Shown: positions 15,928 to 62,421, counted from the first letter of the stretch. The stretch is 64,000 nt of DNA from Hydrolagus colliei (GCA_035084275.1 CM068745.1:21142001-21206000), one strand, 5' to 3'. Numbers and translations: made by a program. Notes: generated by a model from the letters alone, not told the origin.

Positions 15928-16330
15928 TTGTGGATTCCTGTAGTTCAGTATTTAGAGCACTCGCCTTGCAAGCAAGAGACCTGGGTTCGATTCCCTGCAG
16001 GGCAAAATGTTGGGCAAGTTTCCTTAACTCCATATGCCTCTGTTTAACAAGCAGCAACCCAGGTAGCAAGCCCATATGGGCCCCATATGGGATAAATTGG
16101 GTTGATCCATGCCCATATGGGCCCACATGGGCTTGCTACCTGGGAAGTAGAAACCCTCACCCCACATTTCACAAGTTTCCTTACTCCACACGCCTGATAA
16201 TAATTCCTTCAAAAAATAATAATAAATTGGTCACTTCAATCCACAATGGTTTCTGCGACACTTTTGTGTGCAATGGCTTCCATGTTTTAACCACAAATAT
16301 ACGGTCAGATCACTCATTAATATTATTATT
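15928..16330 (+). mobile_element. tRNA-derived SINE variant hosting the 87-bp MITE
   Basis: tRNA-like head tagagcactcgccttgcaagcaagagacctgggttcgattccc, followed by the family body. Confidence 0.75.
16058..16144. mobile_element. 87-bp MITE with CCCAG termini and 2-bp TSD (CMC/EnSpm-like)
   Basis: TIR CCCAGGTAGCAAGCCCAT(A/G)TGGGCCC, 25 of 26 matched; AA on both flanks. Confidence 0.8.
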
Positions 16331-16739: not shown

Positions 16740-17522
16740 TACTGCTACTGCTTTTCTACCTGTGCTCTGGAGGCGTAGTCCTGCTTCATGTTCCCTGCCA
16801 TACCTGTCCACTAGGGTCCGTCGATATCGAAATTTTCCGATATTGATATATCGGTTTGCCCCTATCGACATACCGGTCTATCAATATCGCCGATATATTG
16901 ATATATACGGATATATTGATATATACGGATATATTGATATATACCGATATATCGATATTGCAGGGTTTTTTTGTCCTGCACATGCGCGCGCATTCCGGTG
17001 TGCGCGTCCATTCGGATATCGACAAGGTAAGTTGAAAAAGTCCACATTATACCGATATATACCGATATTGCGATATATCGCTGGACACGATATACCGATA
17101 TTTGCGATATATCAATTTTTTTTACAGATCAAATTTTTTGATATATCAATATATTTTAAATTCCGATATCGGCATATCGATATGAAAATTATATCGGATA
17201 TAACCGATACATCACCGGACCCTACTGTCCACTATTGGCAGTCATGCTTTTAGCCATTTTGCTCCCACGCTCTGGAACGCCATCCCTGAATCTCTTCATC
17301 TTACCTTTTTCCTAGCCACTTTCAAAGTCGATCTCAAGACATTCTTCTTTGTCCGTGCTTTTGGTCATTTTTTATCCATCTCTTTCACTCCATTTCCCTC
17401 CTCGGTTTCCTCTGCTCTTGTATACAACCCCAACTCAGATTGATTGATTGTCCTTGATTATCCAGCACCTTGGGCCATCATGCTCCTGTGAAAGGCGATA
17501 TATAAATGCAATTTGTTGTTCT
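16740..17522 (+). mobile_element. L2 3' fragment hosting the 413-bp hAT MITE
   Basis: gcttttagccattttgctcccacgctctggaac...ctatataaatgc-like end with (ttg)n tail. Confidence 0.7.
16812..17224. mobile_element. hAT MITE (413 bp) with TAGGG termini
   Basis: TIRs TAGGGTCCGTCGAT / ATCACCGGACCCTA; perfect 8-bp TSD CTGTCCAC (16804-16811, 17225-17232); dense CGAT/ATCG subterminal motifs; 18-bp tandem unit gatatattgatatatacg about 3 times. Confidence 0.93.
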
Positions 17523-32842: not shown

Positions 32843-34600
32843 AAGTGGAGTTGTCCAATACATTGGCCCCTGGCCACACGTGACCAATTGCACATAGAAG
32901 TGTGGCCAATTCGTTCATGCAGTATCAGCGACAAAAGGCTTTAAAAATGGCAGAAACATTCACAACTGATGGAATTCACTAATACGTCTGGTGGTATGAA
33001 TTACAATTCACTCATAATGGACAAGTTTGGAGATTGATAAAGTAGTGAACCAACTGCTGATGTTCAAAGTGGAATAGAAAATCTTACTACAGAATTGCCT
33101 TCTTCATAACTGGCTACTAAGAAATTGAGAAATTGGAATAAAGTTTACAGTAAATTTAAAGTGAATGGGAAATTTATTTCTTGGTCATTGAAAGTGAATG
33201 CAAGGAGGAATTATCTATACCAAAAGGCTGCAGATGCTCAGTCCTTGAACATATTCAAGACTGAGATTGATAGATTTCTTATGGATAAAGTGATTAAGGG
33301 ATATAGGAAAAAGGCAGGCAGGTGGACTTGGATGAGGAGATCAGCCATGATCTTATTGAATGGTGGGGCAGGCTCAAGGAGCTGAATGGCCTACTCCTGC
33401 TCCTTATTCTTATGTTCTTATGAGGGTTTTCCTGATAATTACGCAGATCATTTGCAGCAGCATTCGATAGATTTGTCCAGTACATTTTGCATGCGATACA
33501 TTATTACCAACTTTGAACTTAGGGAAGATCTGCTGTTCTGTACTAGACTTATCCAAATTTATCCGAATGTGTGATTGCAACATACAGTATTTGCTGCTTT
33601 CCAGAAAGTCTTGGAGATATTTGGTTTGTATCTTGATAAATTTGCTTCCGTCACGACTGATGTTGCATCATCAGTAATCAGGTATATGCTCGGATTTGGC
33701 CCTGAACTGATATGATATTTGGCAGAAATGGATAGCAAGCAACAGTCGCTGTTCTCTTTCCACAGCATTATTCACCAGGAGAATCTGTGTGCCCAAATGG
33801 TGTCTGGTGGCTTACTGAAAGATGTGATGATTAAAATAGATTTTTTTTGCAGTATTAGACTTACATTCCCCACAGGCCGAATTTTAACAGTGATTAAAAT
33901 GGTTAACAAAAGCTCTGAATCATTACCAACTATTTGTGCAGAAAGGGGTTGAGTCGGAATATGCAGAGATCGATGGGATATTATATAAATGTTCACTAGC
34001 TGAGTCACAGAAAGTTTTTGGAGAGATTAGTGGAATGTCTTCTGCTGGTCAGAGACTTCCTATGGAACAGAAAATAAAGCTGGTAAAATTATCAGTAATC
34101 GATAATGAAGCTTGGCTGTGCATTCTGTTCTGTTACTTACCAACATCACTTCATATCTGAATGATTTGTTCTTGAAACTTGCTAGGGAAAAGAATGTTGA
34201 TTTGTTACCTAATGTGTGACATTAATGAGTTTCAGGTAAAACTCCAGTTATTCATGGAGCAATTGGCAGCTCACAATTTCATGCGCTTTTCTAATTTGCA
34301 AAGATTCTCTGATAATAACTTCAAATGTGAGAGTTTCTACAATTGGATGAGAAATTTGTTCCACAAATTACAGGGAAAAATATCTGTAGATGCACTGCTG
34401 CTCCTGTGACAGAAGGTAGAAATTTAGAGAATTGGTGCAAAATAAAGACTTCAACGCTTCTCATCAAAAATATGTCCCGACTGTATCATTTGATACTACT
34501 GTAGCATTGGTGTGTCATTGCTCATATCATATGTTGCTTGTATTGCACTGGGTTTGTTTGCTGTTTGAATACAACAACAACATGCACAAACAATTTAGTT
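32843..34600 (+). mobile_element. Decayed hAT (SPIN/Charlie, GTF2IRD2-like) transposase fossil, interrupted by a CR1 3' fragment (about 33195-33422)
   Basis: KFASVTTDVASSVI (TTDGA catalytic-Asp motif), FHSIIHQENLCA (CxxH motif), WL...HLNDLFLKLLGK...FQVKLQLFMEQL...FSNL; many stops and frameshifts. Confidence 0.8.
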
Positions 34601-42192: not shown

Positions 42193-42706
42193 TATTAGGT
42201 TCTGCGTGCTGAATCTAGAGCCTAGAGTTGAAGCTCAATAAAATAAACAAAATTGACCAATTTGTTATTTTTGATGAGGAAGGATCCATCATTATTTAAA
42301 TAGTATACGCGTTAGTAGGGAACGGCGATTAATCGGTTTTTCGATTAAACCCGATATGATTTTCAGATCGGTATGCCGATATGGTGATTCTAAAAAAACT
42401 GTTATATCGAGAGATTCGATTTTAAAAATATACATCGATATATTTTTAATATCGTTCCTGGCAATATATCAATATTGTTGGTATTATCAGTGTAATGCGA
42501 TCTTTTCCAGCTTACCTTGTCGCCGGCATTGCAACCTCCTAGATCTAGAGCATGGAATGCGCGTACATTCGGTGCGCGCGCACAATTAACGGGCGCGCAC
42601 ATCCGATGCGCGCGCACACTTTACTGTGTATACTCGACGTGAGTCGTGGCGTCTTAACAAAGTCGCATCGCTGAAAATTGTTGTTTGAAAATTTACCTTT
42701 CTCATC

Positions 42707-43186
42707 ATGGGGAAAAGAAGCCCCATATGGGACTACTTTGAAAACAATGCAGTCAGTAATGGTGTGTATAGATGTACAGTTTGCAAGGTCTTGGTTAAGA
42801 CATCTGATTCGAGCACGAGCAACCTGCGACATCACATTAAGCAGCACCACCCCGCCCAGCACGCTGCCCTCAGAGCGAAATCATTGTCGGTAACAGCAGG
42901 AAGTCGAACCAGCGCTTCGGAGAAAGCGACAGGTAGTGGGGCCAGTGCAGCTCAAACAATTCCTGCTTTATTTAAGAGGAGAACATTGTACCAGAGAGGG
43001 GACAAAAAGTGGCAAAGTATCACGAACGCTGTCACTTTTTGCATAGCAAAGGAGAGCTTGCCAATGGCGAAGGACATTAATTCAGACTTCAGACTACATA
43101 AAAATAAATGGCATTTTGTGGCTGTGTTATTTTTGTGTGTGAGAGAGTTAGAAGCCAGATTATCACTGCTGTGTGTGTCTGACTAG
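42707..43186 (+). CDS. Truncated hAT transposase N-terminus (BED zinc finger), 159-aa ORF; expression unknown
   Basis: SPIWDYF...CTVC...TSNLRHHIKQHH BED signature, then ITNAVTFCIAKESLPM; transposase similarity ends there and no DDE core follows. Confidence 0.75.
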   Translation: MGKRSPIWDYFENNAVSNGVYRCTVCKVLVKTSDSSTSNLRHHIKQHHPAQHAALRAKSLSVTAGSRTSASEKATGSGASAAQTIPALFKRRTLYQRGDKKWQSITNAVTFCIAKESLPMAKDINSDFRLHKNKWHFVAVLFLCVRELEARLSLLCVSD

Positions 43187-43372
43187 ACACACACATAGAA
43201 GCAGTGATAATCTGGCTTCTAACTCTTAACAGTCAGATTGTCTGTCTCTCTCTTTTCTATTGTAATAGATCTCATTTACACGTGGACATTACATGCTACT
43301 TTCAAGCAAGAATTGGAGGAGAATAAATCTCTAGATTTTGTTTTTGGTGTGTGTGTGTTCTATTTTGTGTTT

Positions 43373-44134
43373 AGAGATGGAGGGAGAGAAGGAGAGGGGG
43401 AAAGTTGGGAGAGAAGGAGAGAGGAAGAGAGGAGAGGGAGGGAGAGAATGAGAGGGGGAAAGGAGGGAGAGAAGGAGCGAGGGGAAAGGAGGGAGAGAAG
43501 GAGAGAGGCGAGGAAGGGAGAGAAGGAGAGGGGGAAAGTTGGGAGAGAAGGAGAGAGGAAGAGAGAAGAGGGAGGGAGAGAAGGAGAGGGGGAAAGGAGG
43601 GAGAGAAGGAGCGAGGGGAAAGGAGGGAGAGAAGGAGCGAGGGGAAAGGGGGGAGAGAAGGAGAGAGGGGAGGGAGAGGGGGAAAGTTGGGAGAGAAGGA
43701 GAGAGGAAGAGAGGAGAGGGAGGGAGAGAAGGAGAGGGGGAAAGGAGGGAGAGAAGGAGCGAGGGGAAAGGAGGGAGAGAAGGAGAGAGGGGAGGGAGGG
43801 AGAGGGGGAAAGTTGGGAGAGAAGGAGAGAGGAAGAGAGGAGAGGGAGAGAAGGAGAGGGGGAAAGGAGGGAGAGAAGGAGCGAGGGGAAAGGAGGGAGA
43901 GAAGGAGAGAGGGGAGGGAGGGAGAGAAGGAGAGAGGGGAGGGAGGGAGGGAGGGAGGGAGGGAGGGAGAGAGAAGGAGAGGGGGAAAGGAGGGAGAGGA
44001 GACAGGGAGGATGGAGAGGAGAGAGGGAGAGTGGAGGGGGAGGGAGAGGGGGGAGGGAGGGAGGGAGGGAGGGAGAAAGGAAGGAGAGAAGGAGAGAGGA
44101 GAGGAGGGAGAGAAGGAGAGGGGGAGGTAGGGAG
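43373..44134. repeat. Almost pure polypurine (GA-rich) minisatellite inside hAT copy 1
   Basis: Shuffled units such as gggagagaaggagagggggaaa, ggaaagttgg, gaaggagcgagg. Confidence 0.95.
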
Positions 44135-44516
44135 CAAACAACATCGTATAATTCAACAGACCTTGACACCAACATTACAAACTTTCTGGACCTAGAGCAC
44201 GCATTTCGAAATGTGTGTGCACCGCGACTGCGCGCGCATCATCAGTGCGGACGCACCGTCAATGCGCGCGCACCGCGACTGAGCGCGCACCATAAATGCG
44301 CGCGCGCCATCAATGCACGCACACTTCGAATGCACGCGCATGCGCAGTATAAAAACTCGATAGATCGGTTTAAGCAGGTATGAGCAAACCGATATATCCA
44401 TATCCGGAAAATTCCCATATCGCCGTTCCCTACGTGTTAGTGATGATTATGATGATGTAGAAAGCTTAAATCCACCGCCATGAACAAATGGGATTTTTTT
44501 TCACTTTTGGTTTTAG

Positions 44517-44598
44517 ATTTTGACTGAACAAGTGTGCACACAGGTGGTCCACAAGCCTCATCCAGAACCTGACTCAACAGTAAAAATTCAGAATCCAA
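44517..44598 (+). CDS. NBEA: Neurobeachin internal coding exon (82 nt, phase 0-1)
   Basis: ttttAG|ATT ... A|GTgag; ILTEQVCTQVVHKPHPEPDSTVKIQNP. Confidence 0.95.
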
Positions 44599-44718
44599 GT
44601 GAGTATACATGTAAATAAAAAGAAACTAAAACTGATGGAAATCTGAAATATCCAGCAAATATGAGAATCGATATCAAGTCAGTCTGCCTCAATAAGAGAC
44701 TATTGCCCAAAAGTTATC

Positions 44719-44992
44719 TAATAATTATAATAATAATCCTTGCATTTGATATAGCGCTTTTCACATCTTCTAGACTTCTCAAAGCGCTTCACAGAATATA
44801 CTGTGAAGTGAATTGACTGTATTTTTTGTGGGCGGAATACGGCAGCCAATTTTGCACAACAGTGTCCCGACAAACAGTCAATTGAAATGACCAACTTATT
44901 ATAGGTTTTCTTGGAGGGATTATTATTAGGTGTGTGGAGTAAGGAAACTTGCCCAAGATTTCGCCCTGAACTGCCTGGATTCGAACACAGAA
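44719..44992 (-). mobile_element. 5'-truncated tRNA-derived SINE
   Basis: (aat)n ccttgcatttgatatagcgc...ggattcgaacac. Confidence 0.88.
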
Positions 44993-45611
44993 ACACAGTT
45001 TCTCTTTTAGATGTTTAATTATTATCCAGCACCTTGGGATGTCCTCCTGACGTGAAAGGTGCTATACGAGTATAATTTTGATGTTGTATTAATATAGCAT
45101 GCATATTTTTTGTGCAATTTCACATGAAGAAGACTATTTTCTGACCAAGCAAGCGTTAATAAAAAAAGTTGCAGAAAGACCCACCTGATTGCCTACTGTG
45201 TGGCTGTTCGCTTTAGAACCTTACAGGCACTAACATTTACAAACCACGCATTACCCTCCATTATCATTTTGATGCTAAAAGATTTGCCCTTTACTGCAGC
45301 CATGTTTGTATAACATGATTTCATCCCCCATAATGTTTAGAACCTATCCACTAATCCAAAGAATTTACGTACAAGACCAAACATCACTCCATTAAATCCT
45401 ATCTGTGTAAAACATGTAGAATAAAACTCATATTTCCAAGAATATCTATTTTGATGATGTGTGCTAACAGTGGAGAAAATCTGATGTGAGCATACATCAT
45501 TGATTCTGAACTAGTAGTTTAAGGTAGCCACTATATTTGTGAGAAATAAACAGAAATGTTTGCACATAGAGGAGAAATCTGCAACTAATTTAAGAATATA
45601 CATATTAAAAA

Positions 45612-45840
45612 ATGCAAAATACCATAGATGCTAGAAATCTGAAACAACAACAGAAATTGTTGGGAACACTCAGCAGGTCAGGCAGCATCTATGGAGAAAG
45701 GAAAAGTGAGTCAATGTTCCGGGTCCACGACCCAAAATATTCTGACAAAGAATTGTAGACCTGAAATGTTGGCTCACTTTTCCTTTCTCCATAGATGCTG
45801 CCTGACCTGCTGAGTGTTCCCATGACTTCTGTTTTTAATT
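45612..45840. mobile_element. Penelope-type palindromic terminal repeat (head-to-head copies)
   Basis: 53-nt inverted arms 45662-45714 / 45769-45821; degenerate hammerhead-like ctgacaa...gacctgaaa at about 45742-45766; family assignment from memory of chondrichthyan repeats. Confidence 0.7.
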
Positions 45841-45976
45841 TAAAAATAGGATTGAAGATCAATGAGATTTAATGAGTAGTGAAATATCTTATATTCAAAG
45901 ATATTTCATACAATGGCAAAGGCACAAACCAGATGGAAACTCAATTTGTTCTATTTTCATAATTTTTTTTCTTTAG

Positions 45977-46100
45977 TGATTCTCAAAGTGGTAGCTACTT
46001 TGTTGAAAAATTCTACGCCAAGCACTGAACTGATGGAAGTTAGACGTCTATTTTTATCAGATATGATAAAATTGTTCAGCAACAGTCGGGAGAACAGAAG
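45977..46100 (+). CDS. NBEA: Neurobeachin internal coding exon (124 nt, phase 1-2)
   Basis: ctttAG|TG ... AG|GTatg; (M)ILKVVATLLKNSTPSTELMEVRRLFLSDMIKLFSNSRENR(R); inside ORF 45913..46314. Confidence 0.95.
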
Positions 46101-47399
46101 GTATGTGGATCTGCTGTTACAGGTTTTGCTTGTCTGTTACTATTTTTTGTTTTCTAGGTATGCCGTGTACCTTGTTTTAGGCTGCCTGAGTTACTCCAAT
46201 TGCACAGATTTATGGAATACTGACCTGACTACAGACTTGAATGTTGTGCAACTAATTCTTGTAAAGCAGCATACAGTCCACTCAGGGTTACAAAATTGCA
46301 GCTTTGTTATGTAGGAAACCAGCCTGTTTTCTGTTCTACTGTTACACAAAAGCTCCTGGTGAGGGTTGTTAAAAAGATTGAACAATATTTAATTAAGGAA
46401 CAGAATGTGCTTAGGAATGTTGCAATTTTGACCCAATTTTCCTTTTTTCCACTTGCTGGATTACAGTTTCAGGTGTAGAGTATCTGAGGTTGGACATCCT
46501 CAGATATCTATCTCACTGTTAGCAGTTTACACTTCATTCAACAATGGAGACATTACAACTGAGCCTGATCTCATGCTTAGCTGACATACACATATTATAG
46601 GGATTACTTACAAGACAACAAACCCTGTTAGTAATAGTTTCAATCAAATTTATTGTTTACTAAAAAAGTTTTTAAAAATCACATATCAAAAACTTAATAT
46701 AAATGTACTGTACTTTCAATTATAATAATAATAAAATATGATAAAGCAGCAACTACCACAGAAAGTGGGGATGATATACAGTCATTTCACTTTACAGTAT
46801 ATTCTGTAAGCTTTTTGAGATGTCTTGAAGATGTTGTAAGGTGCTATATCAAATGTAAATGTTATTATGATTATGAGAATTGTTATCTTGTCTGAAGATT
46901 TAGCACAGAGTCAGTGGTGCTACCTTTCCTCCAGAATCTTCTTCACTAAATTTGGTTAAACTTCCATCTTTTATACCCCAAAGTCCAACTTTGTAGACAT
47001 CAACTTTCATGAAATTATATAAATCATTTGGTGCTAATAGTTTTTGTCCTCATTAGCACGTTCCAAATAGGGAATGATAAAATCTATCTATTCAGGTAGA
47101 TATGTCAAAAGAATGCAGGGACACAGACAAACTATCTTTATCTAAACCCTATCACACTTCAGGAGAAAACCACACTTGTTCCATTTCATTGGTGACGGTG
47201 AGAAACAGGAAAGAATAACATTCTAAAAAGGAAAGACATTATTAGCTAGCTGCATCTGGTTGGTCTCTGCGTCAATTCTCTCTCACCATATACACACTGA
47301 GTAGCTGCGTCATTCCTTGACCATAGAGAATTTTCATTTACAATGCCCAATTTCAAGCAAAGAGGCACTGCAGACTGATTAGGAGTCGCTGCTGTTTTT

Positions 47400-47951
47400 C
47401 TCCTCACGGCTGGACTATTCAAATGTCCTCCTTGCTGGTCTCTCCTCCACCCCAAACCATAAAATCCAACTCATCCAAACCTCTGCCACCCACATACTTA
47501 CCCGCACCAAACTTCGCTCCCCCATTACCCCAGTCCGTGCCAGACTTCACTGGCTCCCTATCCCCGAGAGGATCGACTTCAAGATCCTCACCCTTGTTTT
47601 CAAATCCCTCCACTCCTCTGCACCCCCCTACCTCTCTGACCTCTCTCCTCAAACCAGCTCCCGTTGCCTTCGCTCGACTGGGTCTGGCCTCCTCCATATT
47701 CCCAAATCCTCCGCTCCACCCTTGCCTTCAGCCACTATTCCCCGAGCCTCTGGAATTCCCTTCCTCACTACCTTCGCCTCGCCCCCTCTTTTCTCAGTTT
47801 CAGGTCCCAGCTGAAGACCTTTCTCTTCGACCGTGCCTTTGGCCACCTTTCTACACCTGCCTCTGGCTGGGTCCTGGGATCCGCTATTGTGCAGCGCTCT
47901 GAGACGCTGTCTGGCGTGGAGGGCACTATATAAATCAAAGTTGTTGTTGTT
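47400..47951 (+). mobile_element. L2 3' fragment
   Basis: cttcactggctccctatccccgagaggatcgacttcaagatcc...gcgctctgagacgctgtctggcgtggagggcactatataaatcaaa(gtt)n. Confidence 0.88.
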
Positions 47952-48036
47952 ACTTCATTTTTCTGCAACAGATGTAGATGCTGACATTATTACTTAATTA
48001 TATGTTCACCTATTTAATGCGAATTATCTTTTGCAG

Positions 48037-48229
48037 ATGTCTTCTACAGTGTTCAGTCTGGCAAGACTGGATGTTCTCTCTTGGTTACATCAATCCAAAA
48101 AGCTCAGAGGAGCAGAAAATCACAGAGATGGTGTACAACATTTTCCGTGTTCTCCTCTATCATGCAATTAAGTATGAATGGGGAGGTTGGCGTGTTTGGG
48201 TAGATACTCTCTCGATCGCACATTCTAAG
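48037..48229 (+). CDS. NBEA: Neurobeachin internal coding exon (193 nt, phase 2-0)
   Basis: ttgcAG|A ... AAG|GTaag; [64 protein letters not shown]. Confidence 0.96.
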
Positions 48230-49441
48230 GTAAGATCTGATTGATGAAGAAATTAACTTGAATATGCTTTCTCATTAATGCATTGCAAAGTATTCAGATT
48301 CTATTACGGAATTTATTTTCAGTCTACAAAGACAAAAGCGTAATTTTATTGATCGCAAGCTGAATTGTATTTATACACAATTTACTTTGATGTGTTGTCC
48401 TCTACTCAATTTATATGCAGCTAGAATTGCTGTGAATGCATCTCATACTATTAACGCAGGAATAATAATGAAAAAAAAGACTTAACCTTGAGGTAATTAG
48501 AGTGTTAAAGAGGGTGATTTAATGGGTTCACCTCATTATACTTATGATGTATCAATAAAAAGTACTAGGATTGAAGAATATGATCGTACATGATATATTG
48601 TAGTATTTAGAAAGTTCAATACTGCCATCGTGTGGTAACCTATGAAAAGTGCAATAAAGATGTTCCTCAGATTATTTGCCATTTTCTGATAGTACAGTAT
48701 GTTGTATTATGTTGAGACTCTTTGATTTTAGGGTTAAGTCTGTAATATCCAATAATTACCATTGAATTATGTATTACAAAATATGAGTTAAACACCAACT
48801 TCTAAAACCTCTTAAGCCATGCTTTGCTTTGTATGATTAGGAGGTGAGGTTTCCTCACTTTTAAAGACCATTACTCTCTTTGTTACTAGGTCACTTTGTT
48901 AGATTTTTGCATTTGTAATTTTAAGCAGTTTAACACTCCAACGGAGGAGTGAAACATGAAAGATGCAGCATGGAGTGAAGATGCTCTGGGTGAAATTCAT
49001 CCTTGCCATATGTTGTCTATCATCAAGATGTTTTTATTTCTAGGTTTCCAGTAGGGAATGGCGATTAATCGGTTTTTCGATTAAACCCGATATGATTTTC
49101 AGATCGGTATGCCGATATGGTGATTCTAAAAAAACTGTTATATCGAGAGATTCGATTTTAAAAATATACATCGATATATTTTTAATATCGTTCCTGGCAA
49201 TATATCAATATTGTTGGTATTATCAGTGTAATGCGATCTTTTCCAGCTTACCTTGTCGCCGGCATTGCAACCTCCTAGATCTAGAGCATGGAATGCGCGT
49301 ACGTTCGGTGCGCGCGCACAATTAACGGGCGCGCACATCCGATGCGCACGCACACTTTACTGTGTATACTCGACGTGAGTCGTGGCGTCTTAACAAAGTC
49401 GCATCGCTGAAATTGTAGTTTGAAAATTTACCTTTCTCATC

Positions 49442-49858
49442 ATGGGGAAAAGAAGCCCCGTATGGGACTACTTTGAAAACAATGCAGTCAGTAATGGTGT
49501 GTATAGATGTACAGTTTGCAAGGTCTTGGTTAAGACATCTGATTCGAGCACGAGCAACCTGCGACAACACATTAAGCAGCACCACCCCGCCCAGCACGCT
49601 GCCCTCAGAGCGAAATCATTGTCGACAACAGCAGGAAGTCGAACCAGCGCTTCGGAGAAAGCGACAGGTAGTGGGGCCAGTGCAGCTCAAACAATTCCTG
49701 CTTTATTTAAGAGGAGAACATTGTACCAGAGAGGGGACAAAAAGTGGCAAAGTATCACGAACGCTGTCACTTTTTGCATAGCAAAGGAGAGCTTGCCAAT
49801 GGCGAAGGACATTAATTCAGACTTCAGACTACATAAAAATAAGTGGCATTTTGTGGCT
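49442..49858 (+). CDS. Truncated hAT transposase N-terminus (BED finger), first 139 codons up to a putative GTAAGT donor; expression unknown
   Basis: MGKRSPVWDYF...CTVC...TSNLRQHIKQHH...IAKESLPM; the unspliced frame continues open into the purine tract. Confidence 0.7.
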
Positions 49859-50110
49859 GTAAGTGTTATTTTTGTGTGTGAGAGAGTTAGAAGCCAGATT
49901 ATCACTGCTGTGTGTGTCTGGTCAGACACATACATAGAAACAGTGAAAATCTGGCTTCTAACTCTAACAGTCAGTCTGTCTGTCTCTCTCTTTTCTATTG
50001 TGATAGATCTCATTTACACGTGGACATTACATGCTACTTTCAAACAAGAAATGGAGGAGAATAAATCTCTAGATTTTGTTTTTAGTGTGTGTGTGTTCTA
50101 TTTTGTGTTT

Positions 50111-51027
50111 AGAGATGGAGGGAGAGAAGGAGAGGGGGAAAGGAGGGAGAGAAAGAGAGAGGCGAGGGAGGGAGGGAGAGAAGGAGAGGGGGAAAGTTGG
50201 GAGAGAAGGAGAGAGGAAGAGGGAGGGAGAGAAGGAGAGGGTGAAAGGAGGGAGAGAAGGAGAGAGGAAGAGAGGAGAGGGAGGGAGAGAAGGAGAGGGG
50301 GAAAGGAGGGAGAGAAGGAGCGAGGGGAAAGGAGGGAGAGAAGGAGTGAGGGGAGGGAGGGAGAAAGTTGGGAGAGAAGGAGAGAGGAAGAGAGGAGAGG
50401 GAGGGAGAGAAGGAGAGGGGGAAAGGAGGGAGAGAAGGAGCGAGGGGAAAGGAGTGAGAGAAGGAGAGAGGAAGAGAGGAGAGGGAGGGAGGGAGAGAAG
50501 GAGAGGGGGAAAGGAGTGAGAGAAGGAGGGAGGGGAAAGGAGGGAGAGAAGGAGAGAGGGGAGGGAGGGAGAGGGGGAAAGTTGGGAGAGAAGGAGAGAG
50601 GAAGAGAGGAGAGGGAGGGAGAGAAGGAGAGGGGGAAAGGAGGGAGAGAAGGAGCGAGGGGAAAGGAGGGAGAGAAGGAGAGAGGGGAGGGAGGGAGAGG
50701 GGGAAAGAGGAAGAGAGGAGAGGGAGGGAGAGAAGGAGAGGGGGGANNNNNNNNNNNNNNNNNNNNNNNNNNNNNNNNNNNNNNNNNNNNNNNNNNNNNN
50801 NNNNNNNNNNNNNNNNNNNNNNNNNNNNNNNNNNNNNNNNNNNNNNNNNNNNNNNNNNNNNNNNNNNNNNNNNNNNNNNNNNNNNNNNNNNNNNNNNNNN
50901 NNNNNNNNNNNNNNNNAGGAGAGGGAGGGAGAGAAGGAGAGGGGAAAGTAGGGAGAGAAGGAGAGAGGAGAGGAGGGAGAGAAGGAGAGAGGAGAGGAGG
51001 GAGAGAAGGAGAGGGGGAGGTAGGGAG
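50111..51027. repeat. Polypurine minisatellite inside hAT copy 2, spanning an assembly gap
   Basis: Same units as 43373-44134 in a different order. Confidence 0.9.
50747..50916. other. Assembly gap (170 N)
   Basis: Run of n. Confidence 1.
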
Positions 51028-52111
51028 CAAACAACATCGTATAATTCAACAGACCTTGACACCAACATTACAAACTTTCTGGACCTAGAGCACGCATTTC
51101 GAAATGTGCGCGCATCGGCAGTGCGGACGCACCGTCAATGCGCGCGCACCGTGACTGTGCGCGCACCATAAATGCGCGCGCGCCATCAATGCACGCGCAC
51201 TTCGAATGCACGCGCATGCGCAGTATAAAAACTCGATAGATCGGTTTAAGCAGGTATGAGCAAACCGATATATCCATATCCGGAAAAATCCCATATCGCC
51301 GTTCCCTAGTTTCCAGTTATTAAAGCTTATCCTGGCGCATGTGAATGCAATCATTTTATATTGCTCTAGATCTAGACATTAATAAAATGGTTTAGTCACA
51401 TCATGGGTGTTTATGGGATATTGATGTGCGCAAATTTGCTGCCACATTCACTTGCAAAATAGTCGTTACACTTTATTTGATATCTTGTGAAGTGCTTTAG
51501 GACATCCTTGTGATGTGAAAGGCGTTACACTAAATGCAATTATTACTGAGAATATTCAGCGAGAACTAGTTACCAGAAATGGTGGTTGAGGCCAGGATAC
51601 TAGACTCATTAAAGAAACAATCTCGAGAATCGGAGCGTGGAGGTTTTGCACTGAGGTCCCATTAATGCTGCAATTCAATGCCATAATGGATGGCTGGACA
51701 AGCAGCAGGAAAGCCTGACAGACAGTGTTTTCAATAGTACGTTAAGTGATTTTAGCTGGTTAGGTTTTAGCTGGAGGCCAACAGAACCTCTGGGTTTTGC
51801 AAGCCTTGCCTCTTATCACCCTGTGCCAAATACATTCTAGAATTAAGAAGCAGGATGCTTCCTTCTTGGGAGAGTGAGAAATACATTCAAACAACTATCT
51901 GGAATTTGCATGCATAGGTGGGATTCATAGAACTCTGTTTGGAATGAATACTTTTAAACATGTCAGACACCCTTCGTTAATGTAAAAATAAATTACATTT
52001 TAGTTTAGATTTGAAGTCAGAAGTGAATAATAGCACAAGTATGTGAAAGTATATCTATAAGTTCATCCTTTAGCTGCCCGTTAACTTCAACAAATATTTA
52101 TGTTTCTTTAG

Positions 52112-60807: not shown

Positions 60808-62421
60808 GAGGGAAATGTGGTGGACGTTATTTACATGGATTTCAAAAAGGCTTTTGACACAGTACCGCATAAGAGATTAATAAAAAAAATTAGAGGCCCA
60901 CGGTATTAAGGGGATAGTGGCAGTTTGGATTAAAAAATGGCTGAGTGACAGAAAGCAGAGGGTGGTGGTTAATGGGTGTTTCTCGAAATGGAAGGAGGTG
61001 TGCAGTTATGTCCCCCAGGGATCGGTATTGGGACCACTGCTCTTTCTAATATATATTAATGATCTGGACTTGGGCATAGAGAGCACTATTTCCAAGTTTG
61101 CAGATGATACAAAATTAGGTAGAGTAGCAAATAGTGAGGAGGATTGTAACCAACTGCAAGCAGACATACACAGAATGGTGGAATGGGCTGACATGTGGCA
61201 AATGGATTTCAATATGGATAAGTGTGAGGTGATACACTTAGGTAGGAAAAATTATAGGAGGCAATATAGACATGGTAGATAAGGCAGTAAAAAAGGCATT
61301 TGGTGTACTAAGCTTCATTAGTAGGGGCATAGATTATAAGAGTAGGGAGGTTATGGTTAATCTATACAAAACACTGGTTAGGCCTCAACTGGAGTACTGC
61401 GTCCAGTTCTGGACACCTTACTTCAGGAAATACATTAAAGCACTGGGGAAGGTGCAGAGGAGATTCACGAGAATGATACCAGGAATGCGGAACCTTAGCT
61501 ATGAGGACAGGCTGGAGAAGTTAGGACTTTTCCCATTAGAGCAGAGAAGGTTACGCAGGGACCTGTTAGAGGTCTTCAAGATCATGAAAGGGTTTGACAG
61601 ACTAGATAGGGAAAAGCTGGTAGGTGTGTTCGGAATGGAATGCAATACTCACCCGCTCTAAGCTTCGCTCCCCCATTACCCCAGTCCTTGCCAGACTTCA
61701 CTGGCTCCCTATCCCAGAGAGGATCGACTTCAAGATCCTCGCCCTTGTTTTCAAATCCCTCCACTCCTCTGCACCCCCCTATCTCTCTGATCTCCTCTCC
61801 CCCCAACCCAGCACCCGCTGCCTTCACTCCTCTGGGTCTGGCCTCCTCCATGTCCCCTGAGTCCTCCGCTCCACCCTCGGCGGCCGTGCCTTTAGCCACT
61901 ATGCCCCGAGGCTCTGGAACTCCCTTCCTCACTCGCTTCGCCTCGCCCCCTCTCTTCCCAGTTTCAGGTCACAGTTCAAGAGCTTTCTCTTCGACCGAGC
62001 TTTTAGTCACCTTCCTGCCCCTGCCCCTGGATCGGTCCCGGGATCCGCTACTGTGAAGCGCTCTGAGACGCCGTCTGGCATGGATGGCGCTATATAAATC
62101 GAAGTTGTTGTTGTTGTTGTGACCCCATGGTCACAGTCTTAAGATATCTACCAAAAGAAGCAGAGGGGAGGTTAGAAGAAATTTTTTTACTCAGCGAGTT
62201 GTTCGAATTTGGAATGATCTGCCTGAAAGGGTAGTGAGGTCCGATTCGATAACAGCTTTTAAGAGAGAACTAGATAGGTATCTGGGGAAGACGGGTTTGC
62301 AGGGTTATGTGGAGAAAGCTGGTGATTGGGCTTAATGAAAGTGACTTGCTTGGTCAAAGATTCGGCACAGACTCGATGGGCCGAATGGCCTCCTTCTGTG
62401 CCATAACATTCTATGATTCTA
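60808..62421 (+). mobile_element. 5'-truncated CR1 inserted into a minus-strand SINE (60784-60807 plus 62426-62525)
   Basis: [47 protein letters not shown]; (ttctatga)n tail; TGAT at both junctions; host rejoins as cttgcatttgat|atagcacttttca. Confidence 0.92.
61645..62120 (+). mobile_element. L2 3' fragment inserted into CR1
   Basis: PITPVLARLHWLPIPERIDFKIL peptide; (ttg)n tail; CR1 resumes at gaccccatggtcacagtc. Confidence 0.9.

Follow-up and report, generated by a model that had tools for sequence, protein, structure and literature searches.

A non-autonomous hAT element inserted twice within the neurobeachin gene of a cartilaginous fish

Two insertions in neurobeachin introns

The window analysed here is a 64,000-nucleotide stretch of DNA from Hydrolagus colliei, a cartilaginous fish, in which two copies of a non-autonomous hAT element occupy separate introns of neurobeachin. 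Copy 1 spans positions 42316–44432 (2117 bp, gap-free) and copy 2 spans 49052–51308 (2257 bp, including 170 N). Both lie on the plus strand in identical orientation, with a start-to-start distance of 6736 bp. Neurobeachin exons on the same strand are found at 44517–44598 (82 nt, located 84 bp 3′ of copy 1), 45977–46100 (124 nt) and 48037–48229 (193 nt, matching Pfam DUF4704). These exons are colinear and single between the copies, and both of the introns that the copies entered are of phase 0.

Copy 1 is bounded by terminal inverted repeats (TIRs) at 42316–42329 (plus strand, 14 bp) and 44419–44432 (minus strand), and the right TIR of copy 2 lies at 51295–51308 (minus strand). The sequence TAGGGAACGGCGAT is matched at 14/14 positions in copy 1 and 13/14 in copy 2, where the mismatch in the left TIR is a C>T change at a CpG. 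Flanking copy 1 are the target site duplications (TSDs) CGCGTTAG (42308–42315) and CGTGTTAG (44433–44440), which agree at 7/8 positions (chance ~5e-4), while copy 2 has GTTTCCAG on both sides (49044–49051 and 51309–51316; 8/8, chance ~2e-5). CpG decay is already visible in one TSD and one TIR. The 300-bp flanks of the two copies have nothing in common except a 14–18-bp chance match. Because three neurobeachin exons (399 nt, in frame) stand between the copies, the arrangement is not a tandem duplication. The original prediction of two same-orientation copies with 14-bp TIRs and differing 8-bp TSDs, representing independent insertions, is borne out, and we regard two insertions of a non-autonomous hAT element as nearly certain.

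The retained transposase segment

Each copy holds the 5′ portion of a hAT transposase ORF (42707–43069 in copy 1 and 49442–49804 in copy 2, both on the plus strand), comprising a BED finger at amino acids 5–49, a linker and the first helix after it. Both ORFs exceed the cut-off of Pfam zf-BED. Homology to transposase P0001 stops at residue 121 (element homology ends at amino acids 120–121). Among 37 alignments that reach residue 105 or beyond, 28 end at 107–123, eight at 128–129 and one at 149, a count in which many subjects are fragments themselves. A later breakpoint at codon ~129, which 8/37 alignments would suggest, was set aside because it rests on two matching residues.

N-terminal identity to the hAT transposases P0001 and P0152 is 41–47%. 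A further member of the same set, P0101, carries both BED and Dimer_Tnp_hAT domains and matches Hermes at 1e-22. Counted on the alignment, the break corresponds to Hermes residue ~109, about 70 residues upstream of the first catalytic Asp. Like Hermes and ZBED1-like transposases of the Ac family, the element has an N-terminal BED finger followed by a helix corresponding to Hermes residues ~92–109 (aligned via P0101), but unlike them it has no catalytic or C-terminal domain.

Together, the TIRs, the TSDs and the 120-codon transposase segment uphold the earlier classification as a non-autonomous hAT/Ac derivative. The TSDs are 8 bp long (8/8 and 7/8 identical, and 8/8 in a related MITE described below), the TIRs are short at 14 bp (5–27 bp is the hAT range given in PMC3517528), and the BED sequence is transposase-derived, as judged from zf-BED and from homology to P0001, P0152 and P0101. 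Neither copy has the complete DDE transposase of an autonomous hAT element. The putative link to the Ac clade comes from relatives that resemble Hermes and the BED domain of ZBED1. Targets may follow the Ac-type pattern nTnnnnAn (described in PMC8961557 and PMC10368747), to which those of Hermes-like elements conform. In a tiny sample of three TSDs, including that of the MITE, A occupies position 7 in 3/3, both consensus positions agree in 2/3, and the central TA of Buster targets (nnnTAnnn; given in PMC3517528) occurs in 0/3; the TSD of copy 1 matches the Ac consensus at just one of the two positions.

The BED ORF had been described as intact, which holds up to codon ~120 in both copies. Beyond this point a 4-bp indel produces unlike tails. 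Copy 1 encodes 159 amino acids before a stop codon at 43184–43186, and copy 2, if unspliced, reads through 548 codons that include the N gap. All three changed codons in the ORF are non-synonymous, and no synonymous change is seen at ~79 sites. Although these numbers are small, the comparison gives no sign of constraint or selection on the BED peptide, and with unlike tails as well, the significance first attached to retention of the finger is not supported.

Word-index searches returned one match among 416 longer candidates (41% identity) and one among six candidates of similar length (P0152, 47%), and a HMMER search gave 461 matches, with a top identity of 43% among the best 150 of these. 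No close relative of the parent transposase was found in the searched protein sets, the HMMER part covering the best 150 of 461 matches. Judged by these similarities, the parent family is absent from the searched sets, its best protein relative being only 45–47% identical (P0152). When GTDB contigs were screened for stray eukaryotic copies, 11 stretches matched, of which none was confirmed. Likewise, tblastn searches using 14 relatives and a profile of 324 columns revealed no further transposase pieces near the elements; neither copy retains a trace of the catalytic or dimerisation domain, and no catalytic part lies within the 64-kb window. A catalytic region hidden by the N gap of copy 2 is ruled out by copy 1, which is gap-free and has the same units. 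Degraded transposase-like fragments at ~33400–34600 were assigned to no hAT family by Pfam.

The middle stretch and the element ends

The ~310 bp past the break resemble the end of a gene, with an intron, a short last exon, a stop codon, AATAAA and a GU-rich tract. In copy 2 a putative phase-0 intron of 148 nt (49859–50006, plus strand), predicted from sequence to run from GTAAGT to AG, would lead into a putative terminal exon at 50007–50072 (plus strand; AATAAA at 50060, stop codon at 50070–50072), and the predicted splicing would yield a 160-amino-acid product. The donor is whole only in copy 2, copy 1 lacking 4 bp there. The corresponding putative terminal exon of copy 1 (43269–43334, plus strand; 21 codons and a stop) is preceded by a polypyrimidine/AG acceptor and has AATAAA at 43322, then the GU-rich tract. 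The AATAAA named in the original prediction must be qualified in that the second such signal (43322/50060) is common to both copies and the first (43103) is AATAAG in copy 2. A donor and acceptor of such strength occurred in 1/170 control windows, and with AATAAA as well in 0/170, the splice thresholds for this control having been chosen post hoc from the element's own scores. A transposase C-terminus that seemed by eye to be present in one frame of the putative last exon was rejected after an 11-sequence profile gave only scores below 0, and Pfam returned one weak, unrelated match from five peptides of the middle stretch.

A long hairpin of ~83 nt (43144–43226, plus strand) lies within the putative intron, and folding z-scores of −11.9 and −7.6 in the two copies confirm it. 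It does not qualify as a known miRNA, given Rfam matches that fall far under the gathering thresholds and point to generic hairpins, or as a canonical mirtron, the stem ending ~20 and 40 nt away from the splice sites. No other copies of the hairpin occur within the 64-kb window. Three right-arm differences and a changed loop distinguish the two copies; these could reflect template switching, in numbers too small to support such a claim.

Downstream lies a purine-rich compound minisatellite on the plus strand, at 43379–44134 in copy 1 (97% A+G) and at 50117–51027 in copy 2, where it contains the assembly gap (170 N, 50747–50916). Its units of ~25–42 bp are built on an 11-bp core, with a higher-order period of ~122 bp. 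The same variant units recur in similar order in both copies, so the architecture predates both insertions as a unit, in agreement with the proposal that it was mobilised as such.

The ends differ in composition from the surrounding DNA, with a CpG o/e of 1.7–2.0 versus 0.38 across the window. The CpG-rich left end of copy 1 (42316–42706, plus strand) would hold a promoter and 5′ UTR, and its reported near-identity between copies is verified (the ends are 1–2% apart). CGATA/TATCG-type repeats number five in the first 200 bp, three in the last 100 bp and none in the ORF and middle, compared with eight in 16.8 kb of host DNA; they are likely BED binding sites. Arrays of (GC)n with a period of 17 occur at 42559–42618 and 44219–44341, the right array of copy 2 being shorter by 17 bp. 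Arrays had been predicted to follow the ORF, which is correct for the right one, but another precedes the ORF, within the left end. An older related hAT MITE (16812–17224, minus strand, 413 bp, perfect 8-bp TSD) is 72–80% identical to the element ends and has no ORF remnant; two related non-autonomous forms of unequal age are thus found within one gene. The arrays, present at both ends, are part of the element ends, and they recur in the older MITE. The 'unusual cargo' originally proposed is much reduced, the remainder having the look of a gene end with a minisatellite behind it.

Block X (42514–42553, plus strand), in the left end, is a diverged direct repeat of block X′ (44160–44199, plus strand), with 30/40 columns identical; X′ is free of CpG. 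Their score was reached by 0/2000 shuffles in a narrow test and 1/500 in a broad one. Homology of X′ further upstream is weak (equalled by 11–413 of 1000 shuffles, varying with query and gap setting), and the idea that remains of a second left end follow the minisatellite finds no support beyond the X/X′ block.

Origin of the element and of its two copies

Outside the purine tract the copies differ by 27 substitutions per 1342 aligned bases (2.0%), with 1–2% divergence in the ends and 4% in the middle. The left 753 bp carry eight substitutions against 13 in 308 bp (Fisher p = 0.002, or 0.012 by events), a slower divergence that could equally be explained by gene conversion between neighbours. 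Only 7/27 substitutions are CpG transitions despite the CpG-rich ends, and this low share suggests that much of the divergence may be older than insertion. In a slow-evolving lineage 2% corresponds to ~5–10 Myr or 33–63 Myr between the copies, by choice of published rate; 'young' is a relative term for this family, and recent mobilisation is not supported. Nor is a living autonomous partner implied, as a transposase existed then and need not exist now.

We consider it probable that this is an Ac-like, Ds-type internally deleted hAT element that inserted twice, separately, in neurobeachin introns and that includes a native gene end. A full-length parent would have been excised, and incomplete gap repair by SDSA, the origin described for Ds elements (PMC3878927), would have deleted most of the transposase gene. 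Codon ~120 would thereby have come to abut the 3′ end of the parental gene itself, with its short intron, last exon and poly(A) site, together with the right subterminal region, where the purine minisatellite presumably went on expanding and contracting. The cis sequences kept, namely the TIRs and the CpG-rich subterminal repeats, would be bound in trans by the BED domains of transposase, and the derivative would move as one unit by cut and paste. The BED ORF may persist since the deletion started downstream, rather than from need for the peptide. The gene-end signals look native because they are read in the direction of the ORF and lie directly before the right end. Maize Ds and the D. willistoni BuT2/Mar derivatives likewise have short TIRs, 8-bp TSDs, both ends kept, internal transposase deletion, movement in trans and a proposed origin by incomplete gap repair (as described in PMC3878927, PMC3942097 and PMC3517528). 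Unlike these, the present element keeps 120 codons with BED, a minisatellite, a putative intron, a last exon and a poly(A) site, and resides in a cartilaginous fish. A search of titles and abstract openings, in which subscription journals were poorly covered, returned no description matching this hAT family.

Most likely the family had already diversified and each of the two copies descends from a source copy of its own, with CpG decay since. It is possible, though we think it unlikely, that a recent local hop instead produced one copy straight from the other. The 6.7-kb spacing is suggestive, Ac/Ds and Tol2 are known to hop locally (PMC3878927), and chance would yield only 0.07 such pairs at 100 copies per Gb. 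However, at 1000 copies per Gb it would yield ~7, and the 2% difference, the indels, the unlike minisatellite structure and the low share of CpG transitions all count against a direct derivation.

We also think it unlikely that the element is a multicopy Pack-hAT, in which the stretch after codon 120 would be captured host DNA that was later amplified. Its acquisition would have involved template switching, or a broken left end mobilised jointly with a neighbouring MITE-like right end. The middle has a host-like CpG o/e of 0.2 (host median 0.32) and no transposase homology, X′ repeats a left-end block in direct orientation and is free of CpG, and the older MITE follows the left end to block X and then picks up again in the right array. 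The X/X′ repeat could mean that the right end comes from a second element and the middle from flanking host DNA. The frog element hAT-N8_XT, a Pack-hAT with 291 bp of CAPSL (PMC8277862), offers a precedent in which ~300 bp of non-transposase sequence likewise sits in a hAT at sites with distinct TSDs; recurrence of one internal segment at such sites, a mark of multicopy Pack-TIRs, is seen here too. Against this, Pack-TIRs have an identified parental host locus, and no parental copy of the middle was found within the 64-kb window, the only sequence searched. The sense orientation and poly(A) signal position fit a native gene end, the upstream extension of X′ homology is weak, and few multicopy Pack-TIRs are known from animals (four cases, 1.4%, in PMC8277862, a survey that lists zero Pack-TIRs for elephant shark). 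The native gene end that we prefer has, on its side, to accommodate the missing full-length parent, the lack of any transposase C-terminus trace in the middle and the host-like CpG content.

An expressed, KP-like mini-gene, whose spliced 160-amino-acid BED protein would occupy subterminal sites and damp transposition of the family, is improbable, although it fits either origin of the middle and repression would favour this structure. As in Drosophila KP, an internal deletion keeps the DNA-binding domain and interrupts translation, which are the two sequence features set out in PMC12393704, and the isolated Hermes BED domain is described as binding subterminal repeats specifically (PMC10368747). 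The start codon is flanked by A at −3 and G at +4, and copy 2 has the predicted in-frame splice to a stop and poly(A) site. On the other hand, the few codon changes are all non-synonymous with no visible constraint, the donor is missing from copy 1, whose tail differs, and seven ATGs precede the ORF in the left end. KP moreover belongs to the P superfamily, and repression, which was shown for KP, would here be a prediction. Nothing suggests domestication either: domesticated ZBED genes also took their BED domain from Ac-family hATs (PMC3606216), but the present element is multicopy, has TIRs and TSDs, and shows no purifying selection. Also improbable is a combination in which a chimeric multicopy hAT, in a lineage nearly free of DNA transposons, would join a transposase 5′ end to a captured, spliceable gene end, encode the KP-like 160-residue BED repressor and act as a gene trap. 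Segmental duplication or an assembly artefact is hardly credible, for despite the assembly gap in the low-complexity tract of copy 2, the TSDs differ, the flanks are unrelated, the 27 substitutions are scattered, and the neurobeachin exons are ordered and single-copy across the region.

The kind of element is ordinary, and as it stands the result is a useful annotation. It shows hAT elements still on the move in a cartilaginous fish as recently as a few percent of sequence divergence ago, in contrast to papers on the elephant shark that describe DNA transposons as very few (PMC4350176, PMC6817897). The finding would gain weight if the middle were captured host DNA, which would make it a rare multicopy Pack-TIR in animals, if the BED peptide proved to be expressed and to act as a repressor, or if the sense acceptor and poly(A) site shortened neurobeachin transcripts. 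In this last case, which belongs to the improbable combination above, the acceptor, stop and poly(A) module would act as a natural gene trap, and splicing into it would produce in-frame, shortened neurobeachin isoforms with a common 21-residue tail. Recombination between the two copies would remove the 399-nt three-exon block in frame.

Two insertions within neurobeachin

Two near-identical non-autonomous hAT elements, copy 1 (42316-44432) and copy 2 (49052-51308), lie in the same orientation on the + strand with their starts 6736 bp apart; the length of copy 2 is approximate owing to a 170-N gap within its purine tract. Their 14-bp TIRs carry no mismatch in copy 1 and a single CpG change in the left TIR of copy 2, and the TSD pairs are CGCGTTAG/CGTGTTAG for copy 1 (chance ~5e-4 at window composition) and GTTTCCAG/GTTTCCAG for copy 2 (chance ~2e-5). 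With the purine tract excluded, 27 of 1342 aligned bases differ between the copies, together with a few indels. Seven of these 27 substitutions are CpG transitions, and CpG o/e is 1.7-2.0 in the element ends versus 0.38 in the window.

Protein comparison places the host gene, neurobeachin, at 12552-56769 (+), where the catshark protein yields 16 colinear tblastn blocks. Pfam assigns DUF4704 to an exon near the elements, and the large exon from 52112 has 82 protein matches, every specifically named one being neurobeachin or a member of its family. The best match is the catshark protein (72%), followed by sturgeon and paddlefish (63-64%); no other full-length match from a bony vertebrate exceeds 64%. 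A tree of nine rows, using 8 of the 82 matches after removal of a partial hagfish row, joins the window sequence to catshark, its sole cartilaginous fish, with support 96/97, and the host is accordingly placed among the cartilaginous fishes.

Both elements are intronic and in the sense orientation of this gene, copy 1 ending 84 bp before the next acceptor. Three neurobeachin exons (82 + 124 + 193 = 399 nt, phase 0 on either side, 44517-48229), each present once, separate the copies, and tandem duplication is therefore excluded as the origin of the pair. Recombination between the direct copies would delete or duplicate this three-exon block in frame. The original prediction of independent insertions of one structure, with different TSDs, thus described a real feature correctly: the flanks of the two copies are unrelated and host exons stand between them. 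All tests of hAT membership that could be run on the pair gave positive results, and we are nearly certain of this core account, a non-autonomous hAT element inserted twice.

The truncated transposase and the sequence beyond it

A BED finger scores above the Pfam cut-off in the ORFs of both copies. The closest proteins found are N-termini of hAT transposases (41% and 47%), and in the full HMMER search, with 461 matches, identity did not exceed 43% in the top 150. Homology breaks off at residue 120-121, partway through a motif that goes on in relatives. Among the 37 matches that reach residue 105, many of them fragments themselves, the alignment ends by residue 123 in 28, at 128-129 in eight and at 149 in one. 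One relative in this set (P0101), with BED and Dimer_Tnp_hAT domains, matches Hermes at 1e-22. By hand count on the alignment, the break corresponds to Hermes residue ~109, ~70 residues ahead of the first catalytic Asp and within the intertwined dimerisation domain. No further transposase pieces were found inside or close to either element. The break falls after the Hermes BED domain, given as residues 1-78 (PMC10368747).

The ~310 bp past the break (43070-43378 and 49805-50116, the middle) are suggestive of a gene end. In copy 2 a putative GTAAGT donor comes after exactly 139 codons of the ORF, at 49859, and would open a 148-nt intron (49859-50006) that encloses a hairpin and closes with a polypyrimidine/AG acceptor at 50006. 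A putative last exon of 21 codons would follow, closed by a stop (50070-50072); AATAAA lies at 50060, and a GU-rich tract comes after it. The predicted spliced product is 160 aa long. In copy 1 the acceptor, exon and AATAAA are retained, but 4 bp are missing at the donor. Under simple consensus scoring the acceptor reaches 14 and the donor 6, versus 10-15 and 6-8 at host exon edges (17 automatically chosen sites, some possibly wrong). Among 170 control windows, each 310 bp long, one has a comparable donor and acceptor and none combines these with AATAAA, at thresholds chosen post hoc, after the element was known. The hairpin is real (folding z = -11.9 and -7.6 in the two copies), and its Rfam matches all stay below gathering score.

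The purine tract is a compound minisatellite. Its variant units follow a similar order in both copies and differ in number, and within the window its 11-bp core is confined to these tracts.

Ends shared with an older MITE

Arrays of (GC)n with period 17 lie in the left end ahead of the ORF and also in the right end. A related, older hAT MITE of 413 bp (16812-17224, -), flanked by a perfect 8-bp TSD, is 72-80% identical to both element ends and also contains (GC)n-type sequence, along with 24 CGATA/TATCG repeats. In this lineage the arrays are therefore part of the element ends. They had been read as cargo following the ORF, and that reading falls. Of the unusual cargo proposed, the hairpin, AATAAA, purine tract and arrays are all present; once the arrays are returned to the ends, a minisatellite and a gene-end-like stretch are left.

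Ahead of the left array, a 40-bp block (X, 42514-42553 in copy 1) is repeated directly and CpG-free ahead of the right array (X', 44160-44199), with 30 of 40 columns matching, a score reached in 0/2000 and 1/500 shuffles; homology upstream of X' beyond the block is weak. The MITE tracks the left end to block X and picks up again in the right array, a layout that a deletion between X and X' in a sister lineage would give. A minus-strand consensus splice donor in the left end (42515 and 49251) is conserved between element and MITE.

Origin and age of the element

hAT elements make 8-bp TSDs, require 100-200 bp at each end and have subterminal repeats bound via BED domains (PMC10368747, PMC3517528). 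Three TSDs, one of them the MITE's, and the similarity of relatives to Hermes, assessed outside any tree, make membership of the Ac family likely. The element works like maize-type Ds, and incomplete SDSA repair is the proposed source of Ds elements (PMC3878927). The structure of both copies, their separate insertion sites and the loss of the catalytic region are observed. A repair deletion would have fused codon ~120 to the parent's own gene end, and the derivative would then have been mobilised in trans at least twice. This full account, native middle included, we favour with moderate confidence.

The main rival, a multicopy Pack-hAT whose middle is captured host DNA, draws on the host-like CpG level of the middle, its lack of homology to the transposase C-terminus and the X/X' repeat; we consider it possible but rather unlikely. 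One survey counted four multicopy Pack-TIRs (1.4%), among them a hAT element from frog, and lists none for elephant shark (PMC8277862).

A KP-like repressor role for the BED product agrees with published sequence criteria (PMC12393704), but selection lends it no support and it appears improbable. All three codons that differ between the copies are non-synonymous, with 0 synonymous changes at ~79 sites, and a 4-bp indel gives the copies different protein tails; the peptide thus shows no sign of selection, on small numbers. The ORF had been called intact and unlike transposase after the break; the BED finger and the stop in homology hold, and the tails diverge. We likewise give little credence to the boldest reading, in which a captured gene end would make the element a mobile BED mini-gene, repressing its own family and trapping neurobeachin transcripts.

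Divergence is uneven, with substitutions at 8/753 positions (1.1%) in the left end and ORF, 13/308 (4.2%) in the middle and 6/281 in the right end (left end and ORF versus middle, p 0.002; 0.012 by events). Protein selection does not explain this pattern; gene conversion, mosaic repair between members of the family, a mutable middle (hairpin, microsatellite) or selection on the ends could.

The sources of the copies split 5-10 or 33-63 Myr ago, depending on which of two rates from PMC5499810 is used; as a crude limit, the insertions are no older than these dates. Elephant shark SINEs average 12-22% divergence (PMC5499810), relative to which the pair is young. The proposed recency of mobilisation is relative in that sense, and dates of 5-10 or 33-63 Myr imply neither present activity nor a surviving autonomous partner. 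Local hopping cannot be inferred from the spacing, because the number of close pairs expected by chance ranges from 0.07 at 100 copies per Gb to ~7 at 1000. Published accounts credit elephant shark with few DNA transposons (PMC4350176, PMC5381603, PMC6817897), and no account of the present family was found in titles and abstract openings.

Elsewhere in the window, a long palindrome at 45669-45815, in an intron between the copies and unrelated to them, has sub-threshold Rfam miRNA matches only and is probably a small palindromic repeat. Broken frames at ~33400-34600 (+) gave weak tblastn matches only and no relevant Pfam match; by eye, their motifs resemble those of a decayed transposase from a different hAT group. 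The introns are full of SINE- and LINE-like repeats. A LINE reverse transcriptase fragment (Pfam RVT_1) lies at 60884-61279 (+). A tRNA-Ala-like head at 15934-16005 (+) is probably that of a SINE and may point to a chimaera as host, as the Holocephalan-specific CmiSINEs bear tRNA-Ala heads (PMC5499810).
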